From NCBI GenBank assembly GCA_038147295.1, contig JAYQTH010000002.1, positions 586,243 through 650,242 of the forward strand: a stretch of 64,000 nt of DNA, given 5' to 3'. The stretch is from Gammaproteobacteria bacterium. Its GTDB lineage: Bacteria > Pseudomonadota > Gammaproteobacteria > Magnimaribacterales > TMED112. This document shows positions 37,055-43,800 of the stretch, piece after piece. The position numbers were made by a program, and so were the translations under genes. Within the stretch, counting starts at the first letter, position 1, and each line of letters starts with the position of its first letter. A model generated the notes under the pieces. It did no database searches. It had not been told where the DNA came from and saw nothing but the letters and a program-made list of their open reading frames with translations.

Positions 37055-38543
37055 GTCTAGGAAAGAAAGAGTTTTCCTGCTCAAATGCATAAGCAAAATT
37101 AATAATTTTTGCTTCCTCCCAAGCAGAGGCAAAAAATGATACTCCAACCGGTAAGCCTTCTACGTAATCAAGAGGTATAGTTATGTGCGGATAGCCTGCA
37201 ACAGCTGATAAGCCACCATTACCCCAGGAAAGCCCATTAAAGCCTCTAGAGTCACCATTTTCATGATCAGTTTTCCATGCCGGATTTCTGGTAAGTCCTA
37301 CCAGGCCATCAAGGCTATTTCTTTGTAATAGACCGTCAATTTGGTTTTGAGCTCTTGATACAATTAGCTCAACGCCTTTTTCATACTTCTCTTCATCTGT
37401 TGCTGAAGCGCTATCAAGAAAGATTTCATGACCAAAATGTTTTAAGACACTTTCAGAATTCTCTTCATTAAAAGCGATTAAGTCAGACAAACTATTCATG
37501 CTAGATGCACTTGATTCTAGGTATTTATTGACTCCTTCTCTAAATTCATAAAGCAATACATAGTATTCATTATCCCACTTATAGTTGCTTTGAATATCAA
37601 AGTTAACTCTAAGCACTTCTGCTCCTAATTTGGTAAGGATTGCTTCAGATTTTTCTAGTAACACTTTTTCATATTCAGAAACTTCTTCCGGAAAGATGAG
37701 ACCAACTCTTTTCCCAAGAAGCGATTGCTTGCTCATACTTAGCAAGGCTTTGAAATCATAATCTTTTGGAATATTTTTTGTTGCCGGGTCTTTAGGGTCT
37801 GCACCAGATATGGCGTGAAGAACTGCAGCTGCATCACTAACACTTCTCGCCATTGGTCCGGCTGTATCTTGCGTTTCAGAGATAGGAATAATTCCATCTC
37901 TGCTTACTAAACCAACTGTAGGCTTAATTCCAACAACACCATTAATTGAGGCAGGACAGCTAATTGAACCGTTTGTTTCTGTGCCTATTGCAACTGGAAC
38001 AAGGCCTTCAGCAACAACTGCTGCACTACCTGAACTTGATCCGCATGGGTTGTAGCTTAAATCGTAAGGATTATTAGTTTGCCCTCCATAGCTTGACCAC
38101 CCGCTAGTTGAAGGATTACCTCTGAAGTTAGCCCATTCCGATAAGTTTGCCTTACCAGCCAAGACAAAGCCGGAATCTTTTAGTAGTTTTACTATGTGTG
38201 CGTCATCTTTGGGGAAGTTATCAAGCATTGCCAATGATCCTGCAGTATTTGCAAGACCAACCGAATCTATATTATCTTTAATGATTATTGGCACGCCTCG
38301 CCATTCTGTTCTTCTGCTATAAACAAAATTTTTATAAAGGTCTTGATCAGAATAAAGGGCAATTACAGCATTTACATCACCATCTGCTTCTTCCAGGTAG
38401 CTTAGGTACTCTTTATAAAAGGCTCTTTTATTGTTTGAGCTATCAAGCAACTGTTTAAATTCATCCAGCGATAAGTCTTTAAAATTATTTTCGCTGTATG
38501 CAAGGAAAGATATGAGGCAAAAAAAGATGGTTCTATTTAACAT
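37035..38543 (-). CDS. Secreted amidase-signature family enzyme (peptide amidase-like)
   Basis: Signal-peptide-like N-terminus; IKDNI, PCGSSSGS and GTETNGSISCPA (Ser-cisSer-Lys triad). Confidence 0.88.
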   Translation of the reverse strand: MLNRTIFFCLISFLAYSENNFKDLSLDEFKQLLDSSNNKRAFYKEYLSYLEEADGDVNAVIALYSDQDLYKNFVYSRRTEWRGVPIIIKDNIDSVGLANTAGSLAMLDNFPKDDAHIVKLLKDSGFVLAGKANLSEWANFRGNPSTSGWSSYGGQTNNPYDLSYNPCGSSSGSAAVVAEGLVPVAIGTETNGSISCPASINGVVGIKPTVGLVSRDGIIPISETQDTAGPMARSVSDAAAVLHAISGADPKDPATKNIPKDYDFKALLSMSKQSLLGKRVGLIFPEEVSEYEKVLLEKSEAILTKLGAEVLRVNFDIQSNYKWDNEYYVLLYEFREGVNKYLESSASSMNSLSDLIAFNEENSESVLKHFGHEIFLDSASATDEEKYEKGVELIVSRAQNQIDGLLQRNSLDGLVGLTRNPAWKTDHENGDSRGFNGLSWGNGGLSAVAGYPHITIPLDYVEGLPVGVSFFASAWEEAKIINFAYAFEQENSFFPRPNRDKN

Positions 38544-38660
38544 AGAACCATCTTATAAAATTTATGGTAATTTTCTAGTACAATGAATTAGAGAGAGCGC
38601 TTAAATTAAAATACAAAGGGCTATAGGATTAAATCTAAACTCTCTCTCCAAACTCAATGA

Positions 38661-39917: not shown

Positions 39918-40514
39918 TTAAAATGATGCTCCGACAGTAAAAAATAGCCCGTCTTCATCTTCTAACCCTGATGCACCATCGGCCGTAAATGAGCTATAAC
40001 CCAAAGACGCGTCATACTCACCTAAAGAAAATCCGTAACCTACTAAAAAGTTTGATCCTGTGTCTTCGTAATCTCCATAAGAAAATGAGAAATCACCAAA
40101 ACCATATGATATGTCATAGTAGTCTCCAAACTCATCGCCAAGGTAGTACGAGAAACCCACACCGGCATATGACAATGCAACGTAGATTTCTGAAAAGTCG
40201 GCATCTGTTACTTCAGGGTAAGCATAATTGATGTAACCAACATCCCATCCAAGACCACCATCGGTTTCACCCGCGTAGCCGAGATAGGTATCAAGTTCTA
40301 GACCTGCACCACCAAAAGCAACATTAGAACCCCAAGTACCAGCATAAAAGCCACCTTCAGAGCTATAATCAAATCCACCACTGTATGCGGGAGCATCCAT
40401 TGTTTGGGACATCCCACGCCAGAAGTAATTTGATGAAAATGAAAAGTTCGAGGACACACCTGCAAACACATTCAACGTTAGAAATATGGCTAAAGCCATC
40501 ATTCCTTTTTTCAT
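39918..40514 (-). CDS. TorF-family putative porin (TIGR02001-like)
   Basis: Signal peptide, SNYFWRGMSQT...PA.SGGFDY, FYAGTWGSNV, ELD.Y.GY and terminal Phe. Confidence 0.85.
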   Translation of the reverse strand: MKKGMMALAIFLTLNVFAGVSSNFSFSSNYFWRGMSQTMDAPAYSGGFDYSSEGGFYAGTWGSNVAFGGAGLELDTYLGYAGETDGGLGWDVGYINYAYPEVTDADFSEIYVALSYAGVGFSYYLGDEFGDYYDISYGFGDFSFSYGDYEDTGSNFLVGYGFSLGEYDASLGYSSFTADGASGLEDEDGLFFTVGASF

Positions 40515-40553
40515 AAAAACATCTCCTTATTAAAAATAAGTGTGTTAAGAATT

Positions 40554-40586
40554 GAAAAAGGGCTAAACCTTCATAGTTTAGTAGCC
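40554..40586 (-). terminator. Intrinsic terminator-like hairpin directly 3' of the riboswitch
   Basis: Minus strand GGCTACTAAAC-TATGAAG-GTTTAGCC followed by CTTTTT. Confidence 0.6.
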
Positions 40587-40636
40587 GCGTTCCTTCAGCT
40601 TTCGCTTACTTCCGTCCTCGAAGAGGATGAACGATT
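40586..40636 (-). ncRNA. Glutamine-I (glnA motif) riboswitch aptamer
   Basis: Minus strand AUCGUUCA-UCCUCUUCGAGGA-CGGAAGUA-AGCGAAAGCU-GAAGGAACGCG gives P1 CGUUC/GAACG, P2, P3 with a GNRA loop and E-loop strands; upstream of porin-amt. Confidence 0.85.
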
Positions 40637-40654
40637 AGACGCTGCTCCTTTTTT

Positions 40655-40720
40655 ACCATGGAGTATGGTTTAACTTTTAACCCATGTTATATGGGCTCCT
40701 TTTAACCCATGGAGTATGGG
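40655..40720. repeat. Three tandem 15-bp palindromes (A/C)CCAT-N5-ATGG(T/G) in 25-26-bp repeat units
   Basis: ACCATGGAGTATGGT (40655), CCCATGTTATATGGG (40681) and CCCATGGAGTATGGG (40706). Confidence 0.9.
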
Positions 40721-40757
40721 GATAAAAAATATCTTCTTTATAAACACTATTTATAAA

Positions 40758-40798
40758 TTAACATAAACTAAATTAATGTTGTAGAATGTAAATGTCAA
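40758..40798. promoter_or_regulatory. Overlapping divergent sigma70-like promoters for gltBD (+) and porin-amt (-)
   Basis: Plus strand TTAACA-N18-TAGAAT (40758-40787); minus strand TTGACA (40798-40793)-N17-TAATTT. Confidence 0.45.
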
Positions 40799-40832
40799 TA
40801 AAAAATTTACATAAAGTCGAAAAAGCAACAAA

Positions 40833-43800
40833 ATGAATGAGCATTTAGATCACAAAGACAATTGCGGCACTGGATCTATCTTTAATATTTCAAATCAACC
40901 TGATCACACAATAATTACAAGAGCTCTAAAATCTCTTATCAGCATGAAGCATCGTGGAGCCGTTTCTCATGACGGTTTAACGCCAGATGGCTGTGGGCTC
41001 CTTTTAGATCTAGACAAGAATTTTTTTCAAAAGGTGATGTTGGATGAACAAAATAAAATCCTACCTTCTGATTTTGCAATTGGAGTTTTTTTCGTCAATA
41101 AAAATTACGACTTTGAGTCAGAAATGCTAAAAATATGTGCTCAGCATTCCCTTGAAATACTGGGCACAAGAATACTTAAAACAGACTCAAAAATTCTTGG
41201 CAAAGAAGCAGCCAATTCCATGCCAAATATTTTGCAGCTATTTGTTAAAAGTAAAAATCAAAAAGTTGAGCTTGAAGCTGCTCTCTTTAAAGCAAAGAAA
41301 TATTGTGATACGCATCTCGATGCAGAAAGACAAAGTTATTGTGTTAGTTTTTCAAGTGAAACAATAGTCTACAAAGGTCTTGTGCAGCCTGAGGTTTTTG
41401 CCAATTTTTACTCTGATTTGACAGACAACAGTTTTAAAACTGCATCTGCAGTTTTTCATGTTAGATTCTCTACAAATACCTCACCTAAATGGCATCTTGC
41501 GCAACCTTATAGAGTGCTGGCTCACAATGGTGAAATTAATACCATTAGTGGTAACAGAAATTGGGCTCTAGCAAGGACTAAAGCATTTAATTCTGCAAGA
41601 TTAGGAGATATGAAAGACTATCAACCTCTTATCGGACAAAGTGGCTCAGACTCATCTTCTTTGGATCATATTCTTGATTTATTTCGCGTTGGAGAAATTA
41701 AAATTGCCCGTGCAGCTAGAATGTTGATTCCACCATCTTGGCAAAATACAGATTTAATGGATCCAGATGAAAAAGCTTTTCATGAATTTAATTCCATGCA
41801 TATGGAAGCTTGGGATGGCCCAGCATTGATTTGTTTTCAGTCTAAAGATTACACCTGTTGTTTTCTAGATAGAAATGGGTTGAGACCAGCAAGAATAGAG
41901 CACTTTTCCGATGGTAGTGTGAGTATTGCTTCTGAAGTGGGCACCAACCTAGAGTCAAATATTAAGGTTAGAAAAACCGATAGGTTGGGGCCTGGTGGGT
42001 TAATTTTATTTGATCGAGCGCAGAAAAAAGTTCTTACAAACGATGAAGTAGACAAAGAACTTTCAAGAGCTATGCCCTACAGATTGTGGCTAAAAGACCA
42101 CTCTAGACATTTAGAAGCAAATCTACATGAATATTCAGGGCCACAAATGAAGGAAATTTCCGATGCATATTTCGCTGAAGCCTCAAAAAACTTTCAACTA
42201 ACAAGGGAAGAATCATTGAATATCTTTCATACAGCTGAAGAGGGTAATGAGCCTACAGGATCTATGGGAGATGATACACCTTTAGCACCTATCAGTAGCA
42301 AGGTAAGATCAATTTATGATTATTGTCGTCAAAAATTTGCTCAGGTAACCAATCCTCCTATCGACTCTTTGCGCGAAAAATCAGCGATGTCTCTGGAAAC
42401 ATGCATTGGTCCTGAACGCAATATCTTTGAAGAGACCAAAGAACATGCTTCTAGAATAGTAGTAAATTCGCCAATTCTTTCCCATAAGAAATACAATCTT
42501 TTACTCAAAAGCAAAAAGTTTAAGCTAAAGAAATACCCTCTAGAGTATTCGCGAAGTATGGGGCTAGAAGAATCTATGAGCTTTCTTTTGGAGGAGATAC
42601 TATCTGACGTTAAAAATGGTACTGGAATAGTTGTTTTGGATGAAAGGCAAATATCGAGCAATAATCCTGTCATTCCTGCACTTTTAATTACATCAGCCCT
42701 ACACAGTGCTCTTATCAGACAAAATTTAAGAGTTGCATGCAATATCGTGGTGAATTCCGCTTCTGCACGAGATAATCATCAAATTTCTTGCCTAATAGCA
42801 TTCGGAGCAACTTGCGTTCATCCATGGCTAGGCCTGCAAGCTGTATTAAAAAATGCAAAAAAAACTCAAACCGATCTAAGCAAAACAGAGCTATGTGTAT
42901 CTTACAGACGTGCACTGAATAAAGGGTTGCTTAAAATTATGTCAAAAATGGGTATATCCAATGTATCCAGCTACCGAGGTTCAAGGCTGTACGATGTGGT
43001 TGGCTTTTCAAAAAAACTGAGAAAGATATGTTTTTCAGAAATGCATTCGAGTATTGATGGTGATTGCTTTAACGATATTCATCAGAAAATGCTTGCTGTT
43101 TTAGACTCCGACCTTGATACAAGTCCGGTAGCTACAGGATTACACAAATACACATCCAATGGTGAGCAGCATGCATTTAACCCGGATGTAGTATTGCAGT
43201 TGCAAAATGCACTATCGTCTGGATCCTTTAGTGGGTTCAAAAATTTCTCTAGTTTGGTAGAAAATAGATCCCCACTTGCTGTGAGAGATTTTTTTAATGT
43301 TAAGTCAAACAAAGACCCAATTGCTATTTCTGAGGTTGAGTCGATCGAATCAATTCTTCAAAGGTTTGATTCTGCAGGAATGAGTTTGGGTTCCTTGTCG
43401 CCTAAGGCCCACGAAACATTGGCAGCAGCAATGAATAGTCTTGGTTGTAGATCCAATTCAGGAGAGGGTGGGGAGGATCCAGCAAGATACAATACACAGT
43501 TATCCTCTAAGATAAAACAAATAGCATCAGGCAGGTTTGGAGTTACCCCAAGTTATCTTGTAAATGCAGAAGTTTTACAAATAAAAATTGCTCAAGGTGC
43601 AAAACCAGGAGAAGGTGGTCAGTTGCCTGGTACAAAAGTTGACCCTTATATTGCTAAACTTCGATACTCAAAACCGGGAGTAACACTTATATCGCCACCA
43701 CCTCACCACGATATTTATTCCATTGAGGACCTGGCCCAACTTATACATGATTTAAAACAGATTAACGATCAGGCAATGGTGTCTGTAAAGCTAGTATCAG

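Follow-up and report, generated by a model that had tools for sequence, protein, structure and literature searches.

The 5' leader of a porin-ammonium transporter (porin-amt) operon carries what is almost certainly a genuine cis-acting glutamine riboswitch, with ligand binding predicted from its sequence. The leader lies on the minus strand of the 64,000-nucleotide stretch of DNA analyzed here (the window), and the host is a SAR86-type gammaproteobacterium with 37% G+C. A covariance-model search with the Rfam glnA model, which the initial annotation had proposed as a check, returned a match to RF01739 over the full model (positions 1-53 of 53; 67.0 bits, E = 1.1e-12), well above the gathering score of 35, and thereby bore out the complete glnA-type three-way junction described there. 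This aptamer is the sole Rfam match at gathering threshold in the 64-kb window. P1 is formed by CGUUC (40633-40629) with GAACG (40592-40588), and neither junction string, ACGGAAGUA or GAAGGAACG, is disrupted. All highly conserved (upper-case) positions of the RF01739 consensus match but one, the third base counted from the 3' end, a position that belongs to neither P1 nor the junctions. An Rfam search of 40480-40840 with E values up to 10 revealed no second, degenerate aptamer upstream; a Glutamine-II match there covers only the P1/P2 part of the same aptamer (15 bits), and other matches, e.g., BMV UPD-PK1 at 13 bits, are far below thresholds. No new class of element is defined; the aptamer belongs to the known glnA motif.

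The aptamer lies about 70 nt upstream of the Gcw_chp-Amt operon, on the same strand and in sense orientation, within a leader of about 250 nt that ends at the porin ATG at 40514; the operon is divergent from gltBD. The placement in a porin-amt leader given by the initial annotation is upheld by the Pfam domains of the two downstream genes (Table 1), and its gammaproteobacterial host by the presence of the same leader and porin in SAR86 genomes, e.g., CP097968. In a metagenome scan, the aptamer was kept about 115 nt before the ATG in 15/15 orthologous porin loci with readable upstream DNA (61 to 99% amino-acid identity), and porin homologues at ≤58% identity were without it. The leader is 76 to 99% identical versus 68 to 76% for the surrounding DNA; it is under selection. 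Orthologous aptamers score 58 to 68 bits with RF01739. Across 18 orthologous leaders, 100% of cells are paired in P1, in P3, and in the four outer pairs of P2, compared with 83% at the innermost pair of P2. Two P3 pairs and one P2 pair have changed on both sides; P1 is invariant, and GAACGCG is found in 18/18.

Table 1. Features of the porin-amt operon and its leader (window coordinates)
Feature	Position	Strand	Remarks
Sigma-70-like leader promoter	40770..40798	-	-35 TTGACA (40798-40793), 17-nt spacer, -10 TAATTT (40775-40770)
AT-rich palindrome TTTATAAA-TAGTG-TTTATAAA between divergent promoters	40737..40757	.	Nearly invariant in 18 leaders
Hairpin 1, CCCAU-ACUCC-AUGGG, then tail UUAAAA + GGAG	40696..40720	-	Invariant in class-A leaders
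Hairpin 2, CCCAU-AUAAC-AUGGG	40681..40695	-	Stem invariant in class A
P0 5' strand, GUUAAACC	40667..40674	-	Pairs with 40569-40562; last two C shared with hairpin 3 stem
Hairpin 3, CCAU-ACUCC-AUGG, then tail UAAAAAA + GGAG	40645..40668	-	Second pseudoknot-type unit, inside P0
Candidate short helix P1a	AGCG at 40643-40640 with CGGCU flank	-	
Glutamine riboswitch aptamer (glnA RNA motif, type 1)	40584..40635	-	Rfam RF01739, 67 bits
Aptamer parts: P1, P2 hairpin, junction ACGGAAGUA, P3 hairpin, junction GAAG	within 40584..40635	-	
3' flank of P1, CGGCU	40583..40587	-	C40587 at position of published "linchpin" C
Local hairpin (terminator stem of the initial annotation)	40561..40586	-	GGCUA/UAGCC + AACU/GGUU, 3-nt bulge, 5-nt loop
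P0 3' strand, GGUUUAGC (GGUUURRY in orthologues)	40562..40569	-	Variants GAC, AGC, AAU, GAU
C/U tract CUUUUUC	40554..40560	-	U4-U8 in 13/18 aligned leaders; only UUU in 5/18
Hairpin at ribosome-binding site, CUUAUU-UUU-AAUAAG	40523..40540	-	Overlaps Shine-Dalgarno GGAG (40526-40523)
Gcw_chp family outer-membrane protein ("porin"), 198 aa	39918..40514	-	Pfam PF09694, E = 8e-20
Ammonium transporter (Amt), 415 aa	38661..39908	-	Pfam PF00909, E = 1.5e-86
Strong intrinsic-terminator-like hairpin at porin-amt operon end	38519..38554	-	Perfect 13-pair stem, then six U; -17.2 kcal/mol

With respect to transcription, the predicted start of the leader lies near 40763, and its promoter stands back-to-back with a gltB promoter-like site on the plus strand (40758-40787). 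The pattern TTGACw-17-TAATTT is conserved across orthologous leaders. A simple promoter scan did not list the minus-strand leader promoter because its -10 hexamer matches 3/6 positions, and it is therefore from conservation that we infer this promoter. The sigma-54 motif TGGCAC-N5-NTGC was found within 300 nt upstream in 27/41 aptamer-less distant homologues (0.08 expected by chance) and in 0/14 SAR86-type orthologues. We also considered and rejected a sigma-54 promoter in the leader itself, where GG-N10-GC is present by construction of the repeats but the TGGCAC/TTGC consensus is absent. The sigma-70-like promoter and the riboswitch occupy the place of the NtrC/sigma-54 promoter of more distant porin homologues, and the riboswitch apparently replaces the usual protein-based nitrogen control. 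The kind of operon is the one known from NtrC/sigma-54 control of amtB, and the signal is presumably the same, nitrogen status via glutamine; whereas the Ntr system is a protein cascade acting at a -24/-12 promoter, the window relies on an RNA sensor downstream of a sigma-70-like promoter, and its leader is free of a sigma-54 motif.

Upstream of the aptamer, the leader contains a series of conserved hairpins for which the Rfam search of 40480-40840 (E up to 10) returned no known family. The loop CUCC and the tail GGAG of hairpin 1 can pair in the model to give a compact H-type pseudoknot, and paralogous SAR86 leaders show covariation between the two (ACCCC/GGGG in L013; ACUCC/GGGG in L051 and L065). 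At the position of hairpin 2, SAR86 glnA leaders have a different hairpin (CCCUUUUAGGG, UCCUUUUUAGGA, CCCUAUUGGG), which constitutes a compensatory change. The CUCC loops were also considered as anti-Shine-Dalgarno elements for the porin ribosome-binding site, a reading that is unsupported because in L013 the loop has changed together with the adjoining tail (ACCCC with GGGG), whereas the ribosome-binding site is still GGAG. A leader peptide was likewise rejected: the hairpin AUGs give MG* or a 17-aa frame through the aptamer, these frames differ between L098, L013, and L051, and the leader holds no ORF of ≥50 aa.

The conserved 3' element of the leader, GGUUURRYCC, has a potential long-range partner in GUUAAACC, on the 5' side of the aptamer. 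This helix, P0, is an 8-pair duplex of -6.4 to -8.6 kcal/mol in 19/19 distinct leaders and is present in the RNAalifold consensus. Its cells are 97.2% paired, with one-sided changes only, and all variants of its 3' strand are transitions that keep pairing with GUU; a second register using GGGUUAAA fits equally well (97.9% of cells paired). P0 and P1a (AGCG with CGGCU, 40587-40583) are the two candidates for an alternative helix that would use a strand of both the aptamer and the terminator, and neither covaries on both sides, there being no double compensatory change for either among the orthologous leaders. In partition-function calculations, the probability of P0 with the native aptamer is equal to or lower than that with P1 blocked, and often lower (0.33 versus 0.84 in the window), a modeled result that would fit a bound state in which the 3' strand is set free. 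In our folding tests, the aptamer state had no consistent effect on Shine-Dalgarno accessibility or on P0, the thermodynamic coupling being weak, and in SAR86 glnA-type leaders the minimum-free-energy fold is a local GUUAAAC/GUUUAAC hairpin in both aptamer states. For a candidate pairing of the hairpin 3 tail (AAAAAGG) with the U tract, 89% of cells are paired, with one apparently compensated change (L077 group) and one uncompensated change (L127).

Since the riboswitch sits where distant homologues have an NtrC/sigma-54 promoter, lower porin-amt expression at high glutamine is most likely, and on these physiological grounds we lean toward an OFF switch. According to Klahn 2018, citing Ren 2015, a short helix attached to P1 is melted when glutamine binds, and a G-C linchpin forms (PMC6212724). 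By analogy, C40587 and the flank bases of the window may take the linchpin and P1a roles. In the mechanism we propose, the strand 3' of the aptamer would be held, without glutamine, by pairing with the 5' part of the leader through the P1-attached helix and P0 (GUUAAACC with GGUUUAGC). Glutamine binding would form the linchpin at C40587 and melt the P1-attached helix, which would favor the upstream pseudoknot hairpin and free the 3' strand. In the window strain, the freed strand could then fold into the local hairpin before U5 and act as a weak attenuator; in most relatives, which are without that hairpin, the freed C/U-rich strand would more probably mask the translation start region. The use of the P1 3' flank for signaling is in line with the structural mechanism in the literature (PMC6212724). 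In other SAR86 leaders, an anti-Shine-Dalgarno CAUCU directly adjoins P1, which shows that the P1 3' flank is the signaling strand in the SAR86 lineage. The specific release mechanism is put forward tentatively, as less probable than not; the full statement, that a type-1 glutamine riboswitch in the SAR86-type porin-amt leader replaces sigma-54 control and switches expression off via 3' strand release, has in our estimation an even chance of being correct.

Among the alternatives, purely translational control is the most probable, though it is less likely than not. Here, the C/U-rich 3' strand (GGUUUAGCCCUUUUU) and the A-rich GGAG tails would swap partners, masking or freeing the start region (AAGGAGAUG ... 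AUGAAAAAAGG) with no termination involved. The C/U tract is complementary to AAAAAAGG at porin codons 2-4 (CCUUUUU with AAAAAGG; 92% of cells paired), but this pairing shows no covariation, and in a leader with 37% G+C, A runs and U runs can hardly avoid being complementary. Conservation of the ribosome-binding-site hairpin comes with compensatory changes, three pairs having changed on both sides among orthologues (92% of cells paired), and for L007-type leaders, folding predicts that nearly the whole Shine-Dalgarno pairs with U runs. Sister SAR86 leaders mask the Shine-Dalgarno by pairing CUUCUAUAG with CUAUAGGAG or CAUCU with AGAUG, and the Synechocystis gifB switch is thought to act on translation (PMC6212724). 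Against this, nearest-neighbor folding predicted no difference in Shine-Dalgarno accessibility between the two aptamer states. The window has no gifB-type anti-Shine-Dalgarno next to P1; its flank CGGCUAC is not complementary to GGAGAUG.

The initial annotation had read the aptamer as apparently wired to a transcription terminator, such that the glutamine-bound P1 would let the 40586-40561 hairpin form before U5 and transcription would end near 40555. Its description of a hairpin plus U tract is accurate: C40587 is followed by GGCUA-CUA-AACU / AUGAA / GGUU-UAGCC, a C, and UUUUU (40559-40555), so that the hairpin starts one base past the linchpin C and, given the position of the ATG, about 40 nt separate the U run from the porin start. 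Three substitutions in the window lineage (CAAAAC to CUAAAC, GAC to AGC) create GGCUA/UAGCC while the long-range pairing is kept. The CGGCU flank of P1 doubles as the 5' base of this hairpin, and GGCU within it can instead pair with AGCG (40643-40640) as a possible antiterminator. The wiring itself finds no support in that form. The local hairpin has 9 pairs, an interrupting bulge, and -5.9 kcal/mol (-7.0 with flanks), whereas the four gene-end terminators in the window have perfect stems of 8 to 13 pairs and -12.7 to -17.2 kcal/mol, two- to threefold stronger, and a consensus terminator scan did not call it. It is found only in the window and in a 96%-identical contig (L126); the same stretch folds at 0 to -4 kcal/mol in the 16/18 orthologous leaders that are without the hairpin and keep everything else. 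Across orthologues, 70% and 74% of its cells are paired, with pairs broken in 8 to 13 of 18 sequences, and the U run shrinks to UUU in 5/18. In addition, SAR86 glnA leaders of the same platform type have no U run at all. The stable, uninterrupted, G+C-rich stem and the conservation expected of an intrinsic terminator are absent, while the U tract is present in the window. A simple transcriptional OFF switch is therefore unlikely.

We regard the reverse polarity as about equally improbable. In an ON switch, the 3' strand would zip up without glutamine from P1 outwards (P1a, CAUGGU with ACUAUG, and P0) into a long hairpin, with the aptamer at its tip and the U run at its base, that terminates or blocks expression; glutamine would prevent the zipper. 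This would agree with the published effect of glutamine, i.e., melting of the P1-attached helix, and the order of the 3' segments fits co-transcriptional zipping. The 3' arm of hairpin 3 (CAUGGU, 40660-40655) is indeed also complementary to ACUAUG (40577-40572), making an alternative "rod" fold possible, and in L007-type leaders the rod is unbroken over about 27 pairs, with CC and eight U behind it. Rod complementarity inside P0 reaches significance in the L007 and L077 sub-lineages alone (z scores of -3 and -2) but is not significant in the window (z = -1.3), and in SAR86 glnA leaders the 3' strand is not followed by a U run. Moreover, the sigma-54 promoters of distant operon homologues imply induction under nitrogen limitation, and the same platform type precedes genes for nitrogen acquisition (glutamine synthetase, TonB-dependent receptor); both argue against an ON switch.

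Three further points weigh against the OFF polarity. P0 might itself serve as a terminator together with the U run that follows it, which is eight U long in the L007 type, and the polarity would then be inverted. If gifB is taken as a direct model, expression could instead be turned on by glutamine through melting of the helix adjacent to P1. In SAR11, detection of one riboswitch-associated Amt is reported to have been confined to nitrogen-replete conditions (PMC3870248).

It is quite unlikely that the repeats are DNA operators, with the three CCAT-N5-ATGG palindromes and the TTTATAAA palindrome binding a transcription factor for gltBD and porin-amt, independently of the riboswitch. The CCAT-N5-ATGG units are palindromic, nearly invariant, regularly spaced (25 to 26 bp), and located between divergent promoters, as operators would be. 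Nevertheless, the hairpin units accompany the aptamer, always in one orientation, in unrelated leaders of SAR86 (glnA, TonB-dependent receptor) downstream of a promoter-like site, and the covariation of loop with downstream GGRG and of the hairpin 2 stem is not expected of a protein operator. The TTTATAAA palindrome alone could act in the RNA, as a hairpin spanning about +7 to +27 of the leader, or in the DNA, as an operator that precedes the gltB -35; scored as a helix, it has 93.5% of its cells paired, with variation on one side only. Finally, that the aptamer is a decaying or non-functional remnant is extremely improbable given its 67 bits, its intact highly conserved positions, and its retention with compensatory changes in all orthologues to 61% amino-acid identity, and we found no points in favor of it.

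The closest described relatives are the Synechocystis gifB switch and the cyanobacterial glnA motifs (RF01739; Ames & Breaker 2011; Ren 2015; Klahn 2018), with which the window element shares P1/P2/P3, ACGGAAGUA and GAAGGAACG, the C 3' of P1, and a position in the 5' UTR of a nitrogen-metabolism gene. It differs in its host, a heterotrophic gammaproteobacterium, in its target (porin-amt rather than a glutamine-synthetase inactivating factor), in the missing anti-Shine-Dalgarno next to P1, in an expected polarity that is opposite (OFF versus ON), and in a long leader with extra conserved hairpins and a long-range helix. The same motif and gene associations were reported for marine-metagenome glnA RNAs before amt, glnA, gltB, and PII genes (Weinberg 2010, PMC2864571), and the window is very probably the kind of sequence behind those matches. 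Where Klahn 2018 discusses matches upstream of glnA genes, their taxonomic affiliation is left open (PMC6212724); the window comes with a defined host lineage (SAR86) and a complete leader architecture.

Riboswitch-like elements before amt/amtB genes have also been described in "Ca. Pelagibacter" (Meyer 2009; Smith 2013, PMC3870248), likewise a streamlined marine heterotroph with an RNA element before Amt. That lineage is different, and SAR11-like genomes in our scan have tandem glutamine aptamers before Amt genes with a different flanking platform, compared with the single aptamer of the window. Pelagibacter is reported to be without PII, NtrB, and NtrC, a statement that covers Pelagibacter alone.

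Classical transcriptional OFF riboswitches use terminator/antiterminator platforms, e.g., the xpt guanine riboswitch of B. subtilis. The window strain shares with them the order of aptamer, hairpin, and U run, but its hairpin is weak, bulged, and unconserved, and there is no clear antiterminator overlapping P1.

The initial annotation had described glnA-motif RNAs as best known from cyanobacteria and marine metagenomes, and the wider distribution calls for a correction: such aptamers are common in marine Proteobacteria and no oddity there. A scan of GTDB genomes with a strict aptamer pattern gave at least 119 loci; among the matches listed, 29 are cyanobacterial and at least 90 are non-cyanobacterial. 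Amt is the most frequent proteobacterial target among the matches listed (29/80 proteobacterial examples), and together with Gcw_chp (8/80) it accounts for 37/80. That glnA RNAs of marine metagenomes are associated with ammonium transporters has been in the literature since 2010 (Weinberg 2010, PMC2864571). In SAR86, the same platform type is also found before glutamine synthetase (glnA) and TonB-dependent receptor genes. A broader reading, which is speculative and rather less than probable, is that SAR86 has its own undescribed platform of one or two compact H-type pseudoknot hairpins (CCAU-ACUCC-AUGG, A-rich tail, GGAG), a structural hairpin, and an aptamer-enclosing clamp helix, which would repress amt, glutamine synthetase, and TonB-dependent receptor genes and replace NtrBC/sigma-54, while gifB-like leaders would switch on IF17-like DUF4278 proteins in the same genomes. 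If true, this would amount to an RNA-based nitrogen regulon in an abundant marine heterotroph.

To our knowledge, experimental tests of glutamine riboswitches have been made in cyanobacteria only. The literature considered here confines these riboswitches to cyanobacteria and unassigned marine metagenome sequences, and the window and the genome scan assign many such sequences to SAR86, SAR11-like, and other abundant marine heterotrophs, in which, among the matches listed, the commonest target is ammonium uptake. A riboswitch in place of an NtrC/sigma-54 promoter fits the idea that streamlined genomes swap protein regulators for RNA sensors. The polarity and mechanism of this switch, if worked out, would explain how ammonium uptake is tuned in some of the commonest bacteria of the ocean.

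A covariance-model comparison with Rfam family RF01739 identifies a full-length glutamine riboswitch aptamer on the minus strand (67.0 bits against a gathering score of 35, E = 1.1e-12, model positions 1-53 of 53), the sole Rfam match at gathering score across the 64-kb window. Both junction strings, ACGGAAGUA and GAAGGAACG, are unbroken, and among orthologues the stems P2 and P3 show two-sided changes, with P1 invariant. The initial annotation, which had read a complete glnA-type aptamer from the sequence and proposed a covariance-model search as a check, was correct in identifying a glutamine riboswitch in a gammaproteobacterium, and the features it described (aptamer, adjoining hairpin and U tract before the porin ATG) are all found.

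Features of the porin-amt leader and its surroundings (window positions)
Feature	Position	Strand	Remark
gltB + gltD		+	divergent from porin-amt (gene context)
gltBD promoter-like TTAACA-18-TAGAAT	40758-40787	+	back-to-back with porin-amt promoter
porin-amt promoter, sigma-70-like TTGACA-17-TAATTT	40798-40770	-	conserved in orthologous leaders
AT-rich palindrome TTTATAAA-N5-TTTATAAA	40757-40737		between the two divergent promoters; conserved
Pseudoknot-type hairpins CC(C)AU-ACUCC-AUGG(G) + A-rich tail + GGAG	40720-40696 and 40668-40645	-
Plain hairpin	40695-40681	-	between the two pseudoknot-type units
Long-range complement GUUAAACC of 3' element	40674-40667	-	8-pair duplex
RF01739 match	40635..40584	-
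P1	CGUUC 40633-40629 with GAACG 40592-40588	-	RF01739 alignment
Local hairpin GGCUA/UAGCC + AACU/GGUU, 3-nt bulge	40586-40561	-	begins right after C40587
3' element GGUUURRYCC	40569-40560	-	conserved in orthologous leaders
C, then UUUUU	40559-40555 (U run)	-	directly 3' of local hairpin
Hairpin over Shine-Dalgarno	40540-40526	-	three compensated pairs
Gcw_chp outer-membrane protein (porin), 198 aa	40514-39918	-	first gene 3' of aptamer; ATG at 40514
Amt ammonium transporter, 415 aa	39908-38661	-	second gene after leader
Strong terminator-like hairpin	38554-38519	-	after amt; -17.2 kcal/mol; perfect 13-pair stem, then six U

By sequence, the host is a SAR86-type gammaproteobacterium, since SAR86 genomes share this leader and porin (the complete 1.0-Mb CP097968, locus L098, as well as loci L077 and L087), G+C content of the window is 37%, and DNA identity to those species is 68-76% over the 3-8 kb compared; an identical porin protein is present in marine MAGs. 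A scan for the strict pattern CGTTCA-N8-20-ACGGAAGTA-N8-14-GAAGGAACG, with each GTDB species represented by a single genome, returned at least 119 aptamer loci, and among the matches listed just 29 are cyanobacterial, with 24 from SAR86, 35 from Alphaproteobacteria including SAR11-like ones, 12 from other Gammaproteobacteria, and others from Pelagibacterales, SAR116, SAR92 and Porticoccaceae. The 80 genes following proteobacterial aptamers among these listed matches include those for Amt (29), circularly permuted ATP-grasp proteins (16), Gcw_chp (8), GltB (7), glutamine synthetase (5), GltD (2) and TonB-dependent receptors (2). Gammaproteobacterial placement of this riboswitch is common, not exceptional. 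The motif has been described as limited to cyanobacteria and marine metagenomic sequences, with no settled host taxa for metagenomic glnA-upstream aptamers and a mode of action called "unclear to date" (PMC6212724), and the SAR86 genome literature that we checked does not mention riboswitches. Ammonium transporters were already among the motif-associated genes in 2010 (PMC2864571), and RF01739 is listed inside SAR86 deletions in work from 2025 (PMC12379486). The gammaproteobacterial aptamer is therefore under-discussed, yet not new in databases.

With respect to other glutamine-aptamer leaders, we observe that some SAR86 leaders carry a P1-abutting CAUCU... strand complementary to the ribosome-binding site GGAGAUG, with small-protein genes downstream. 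This is the gifB design, whereas CGGCU abuts P1 in the window, and by analogy these leaders are presumably ON switches. They are found at loci L084, L095, L100, L105 and L122 and at L018, L028, L075, L076, L093 and L125; their products are either 71-74 aa long, starting MTKWEYKVVDH... with a weak DUF4177 match, or 46-54 aa long, ending ...FFPYYL without a Pfam match. In SAR86, Porticoccaceae/SAR92 and one unclassified MAG, some genes immediately behind single or tandem aptamers encode 56-60-aa proteins with three YRG repeats (L068:4137-4304:-, L070:2439-2606:+, L045:7563-7742:+, L111:4595-4774:+). These match DUF4278 (30.2 and 50.1 bits, above the Pfam cut-off of 25.3, and 22.8, just below it), the domain found in IF17, a glutamine-synthetase inactivating factor of cyanobacteria; according to the literature, such factors are unique to cyanobacteria. 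In SAR11-like "Alphaproteobacteria," the gene behind tandem aptamers encodes, in 16 of the 80 proteobacterial cases, a 468-aa circularly permuted ATP-grasp protein (CP_ATPgrasp_1, CP_ATPgrasp_2; L010, L030, L047-L049, L056, L063, L067, L083, L107, L113 and others), an association that we did not find discussed in the literature searched. Furthermore, single aptamers precede gltB or gltD in marine gammaproteobacterial MAGs, some recorded as "Thiothrix sp." (L019, L020, L027, L085, L102, L103, L115, L118). There the aptamer is followed by a pair of hairpins that exclude each other (CACCAAACU...AGGUUUGGUG or CCUAAGGUUUGGUGA...UCAUCAAACUCUUAGG), without a U run, and the arrangement is a further expression platform for this aptamer.

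The initial annotation also read the window aptamer as apparently wired to a transcription terminator. The hairpin and U5 exist, beginning next to C40587, which adjoins P1 on its 3' side, but the hairpin is weak (-5.9 kcal/mol; -7.0 with flanks) compared with the four gene-end terminators in the window (-12.7 to -17.2 kcal/mol; perfect 8-13-pair stems, then T5-T8), and a consensus terminator scan of the window did not list it. Among orthologous leaders, it is present only in the window and the 96%-identical contig L126; in the other 16 distinct leaders this stretch has a folding energy of 0 to -4 kcal/mol and mostly leaves the strand beside the U run unused. On the alignment, its helices are 70% and 74% paired, with single pairs broken in 8-13 of the 18 sequences, and in 5 of 18 the U run is UUU, with AG or GA next. 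Because it is absent from these 16 relatives and three substitutions in the window lineage (CAAAAC to CUAAAC; GAC to AGC) create GGCUA/UAGCC, we consider the hairpin a derived, strain-level feature, which may act as a weak attenuator in this strain and cannot be the conserved output of the riboswitch.

Conservation lies in another, more elaborate platform. Measured from hairpin 1 up to the ATG, the leader is 76-99% identical among species, against 68-76% for the surrounding DNA, and contains no plausible ORF. Variants of its 3' element (GAC, AGC, AAU, GAU) differ by transitions only and always keep pairing with an upstream GUU. The long-range duplex P0 (40674-40667 with 40569-40562) is 8 pairs long in all leaders, at -6.4 to -9.9 kcal/mol, with an alternative register, GGGUUAAA, one step further upstream; the registers are 97.2% or 97.9% paired without two-sided changes, and the RNAalifold consensus includes this helix, enclosing the natively folded aptamer. 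In the pseudoknot-type hairpins, loop CUCC and tail GGAG can, by complementarity, fold into a compact H-type pseudoknot. The two covary (ACCCC/GGGG in L013; U-G intermediates in L051, L065 and L127), with no C-A combination across the leaders compared. The unit, also seen at L013, L022, L051, L053, L065 and L119, is restricted to SAR86 leaders with glutamine aptamers, before porin-amt, glutamine synthetase and TonB-dependent receptor genes. The middle hairpin is swapped for other, compensated stems in glnA leaders, and an Rfam search returned no family for either hairpin type.

Klahn 2018 (PMC6212724), citing Ren 2015, reports that glutamine induces a long-range G-C pair, in which the C immediately 3' of P1 takes part, and melts a short helix attached to P1. 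The CGGCU abutting P1 in the window can pair with AGCG (40643-40640; candidate helix P1a) and doubles as the base of the local hairpin. Without glutamine, the 5' part of the leader would hold the 3' strand through P1a and P0, and in L007-type leaders such pairing gives a continuous predicted rod of ~27 pairs. With glutamine, the 3' strand would be released, feeding the weak hairpin-plus-U5 attenuator in the window strain and masking the start region in relatives (CCUUUUU with AAAAAGG). This release mechanism is our best, tentative reading: nearest-neighbour calculations show no coupling of aptamer state to Shine-Dalgarno accessibility, P0 tends only inconsistently to be less likely with a natively folded aptamer, the rod has statistical support in two sub-lineages only, and polarity could be opposite, with rod and U run forming the terminator itself and glutamine relieving it. 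Physiology favours OFF polarity, that is, repression at high glutamine, considering the sigma-54 promoters at distant operon homologues and the same platform type before glutamine synthetase.

The palindrome between the divergent promoters could be an operator common to gltBD and porin-amt, or an RNA hairpin at the leader 5' end. Downstream, an amidase gene follows the terminator-like hairpin and is probably a separate transcription unit; the hairpin overlaps the first ATG (38543) of the 502-aa amidase ORF, so the true start probably lies further downstream. Scanned with the porin protein as query, metagenomes yielded 65 loci. Every orthologue with readable upstream DNA (61-99% amino acid identity) carries the aptamer ~115 nt before the ATG, and no homologue at ≤58% identity does. 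The sigma-54-type motif TGGCAC-N5-NTGC lies ≤300 nt upstream in 27 of 41 distant homologues (L143-L189; chance expectation 0.08) and in 0 of 14 SAR86-type orthologues. Some of the distant loci also have NtrC-like TGCACC sites, and none has a glutamine aptamer. This presence of sigma-54 motifs in distant homologues, with the riboswitch in SAR86 instead, is the best argument for repression at high glutamine. In the SAR86 lineage, a sigma-70-like promoter and a riboswitch appear to occupy the place of the Ntr control of other lineages. This replacement may merit specialist follow-up, as may the accessory module of pseudoknot and clamp, and the IF17-like DUF4278 proteins behind gammaproteobacterial aptamers.
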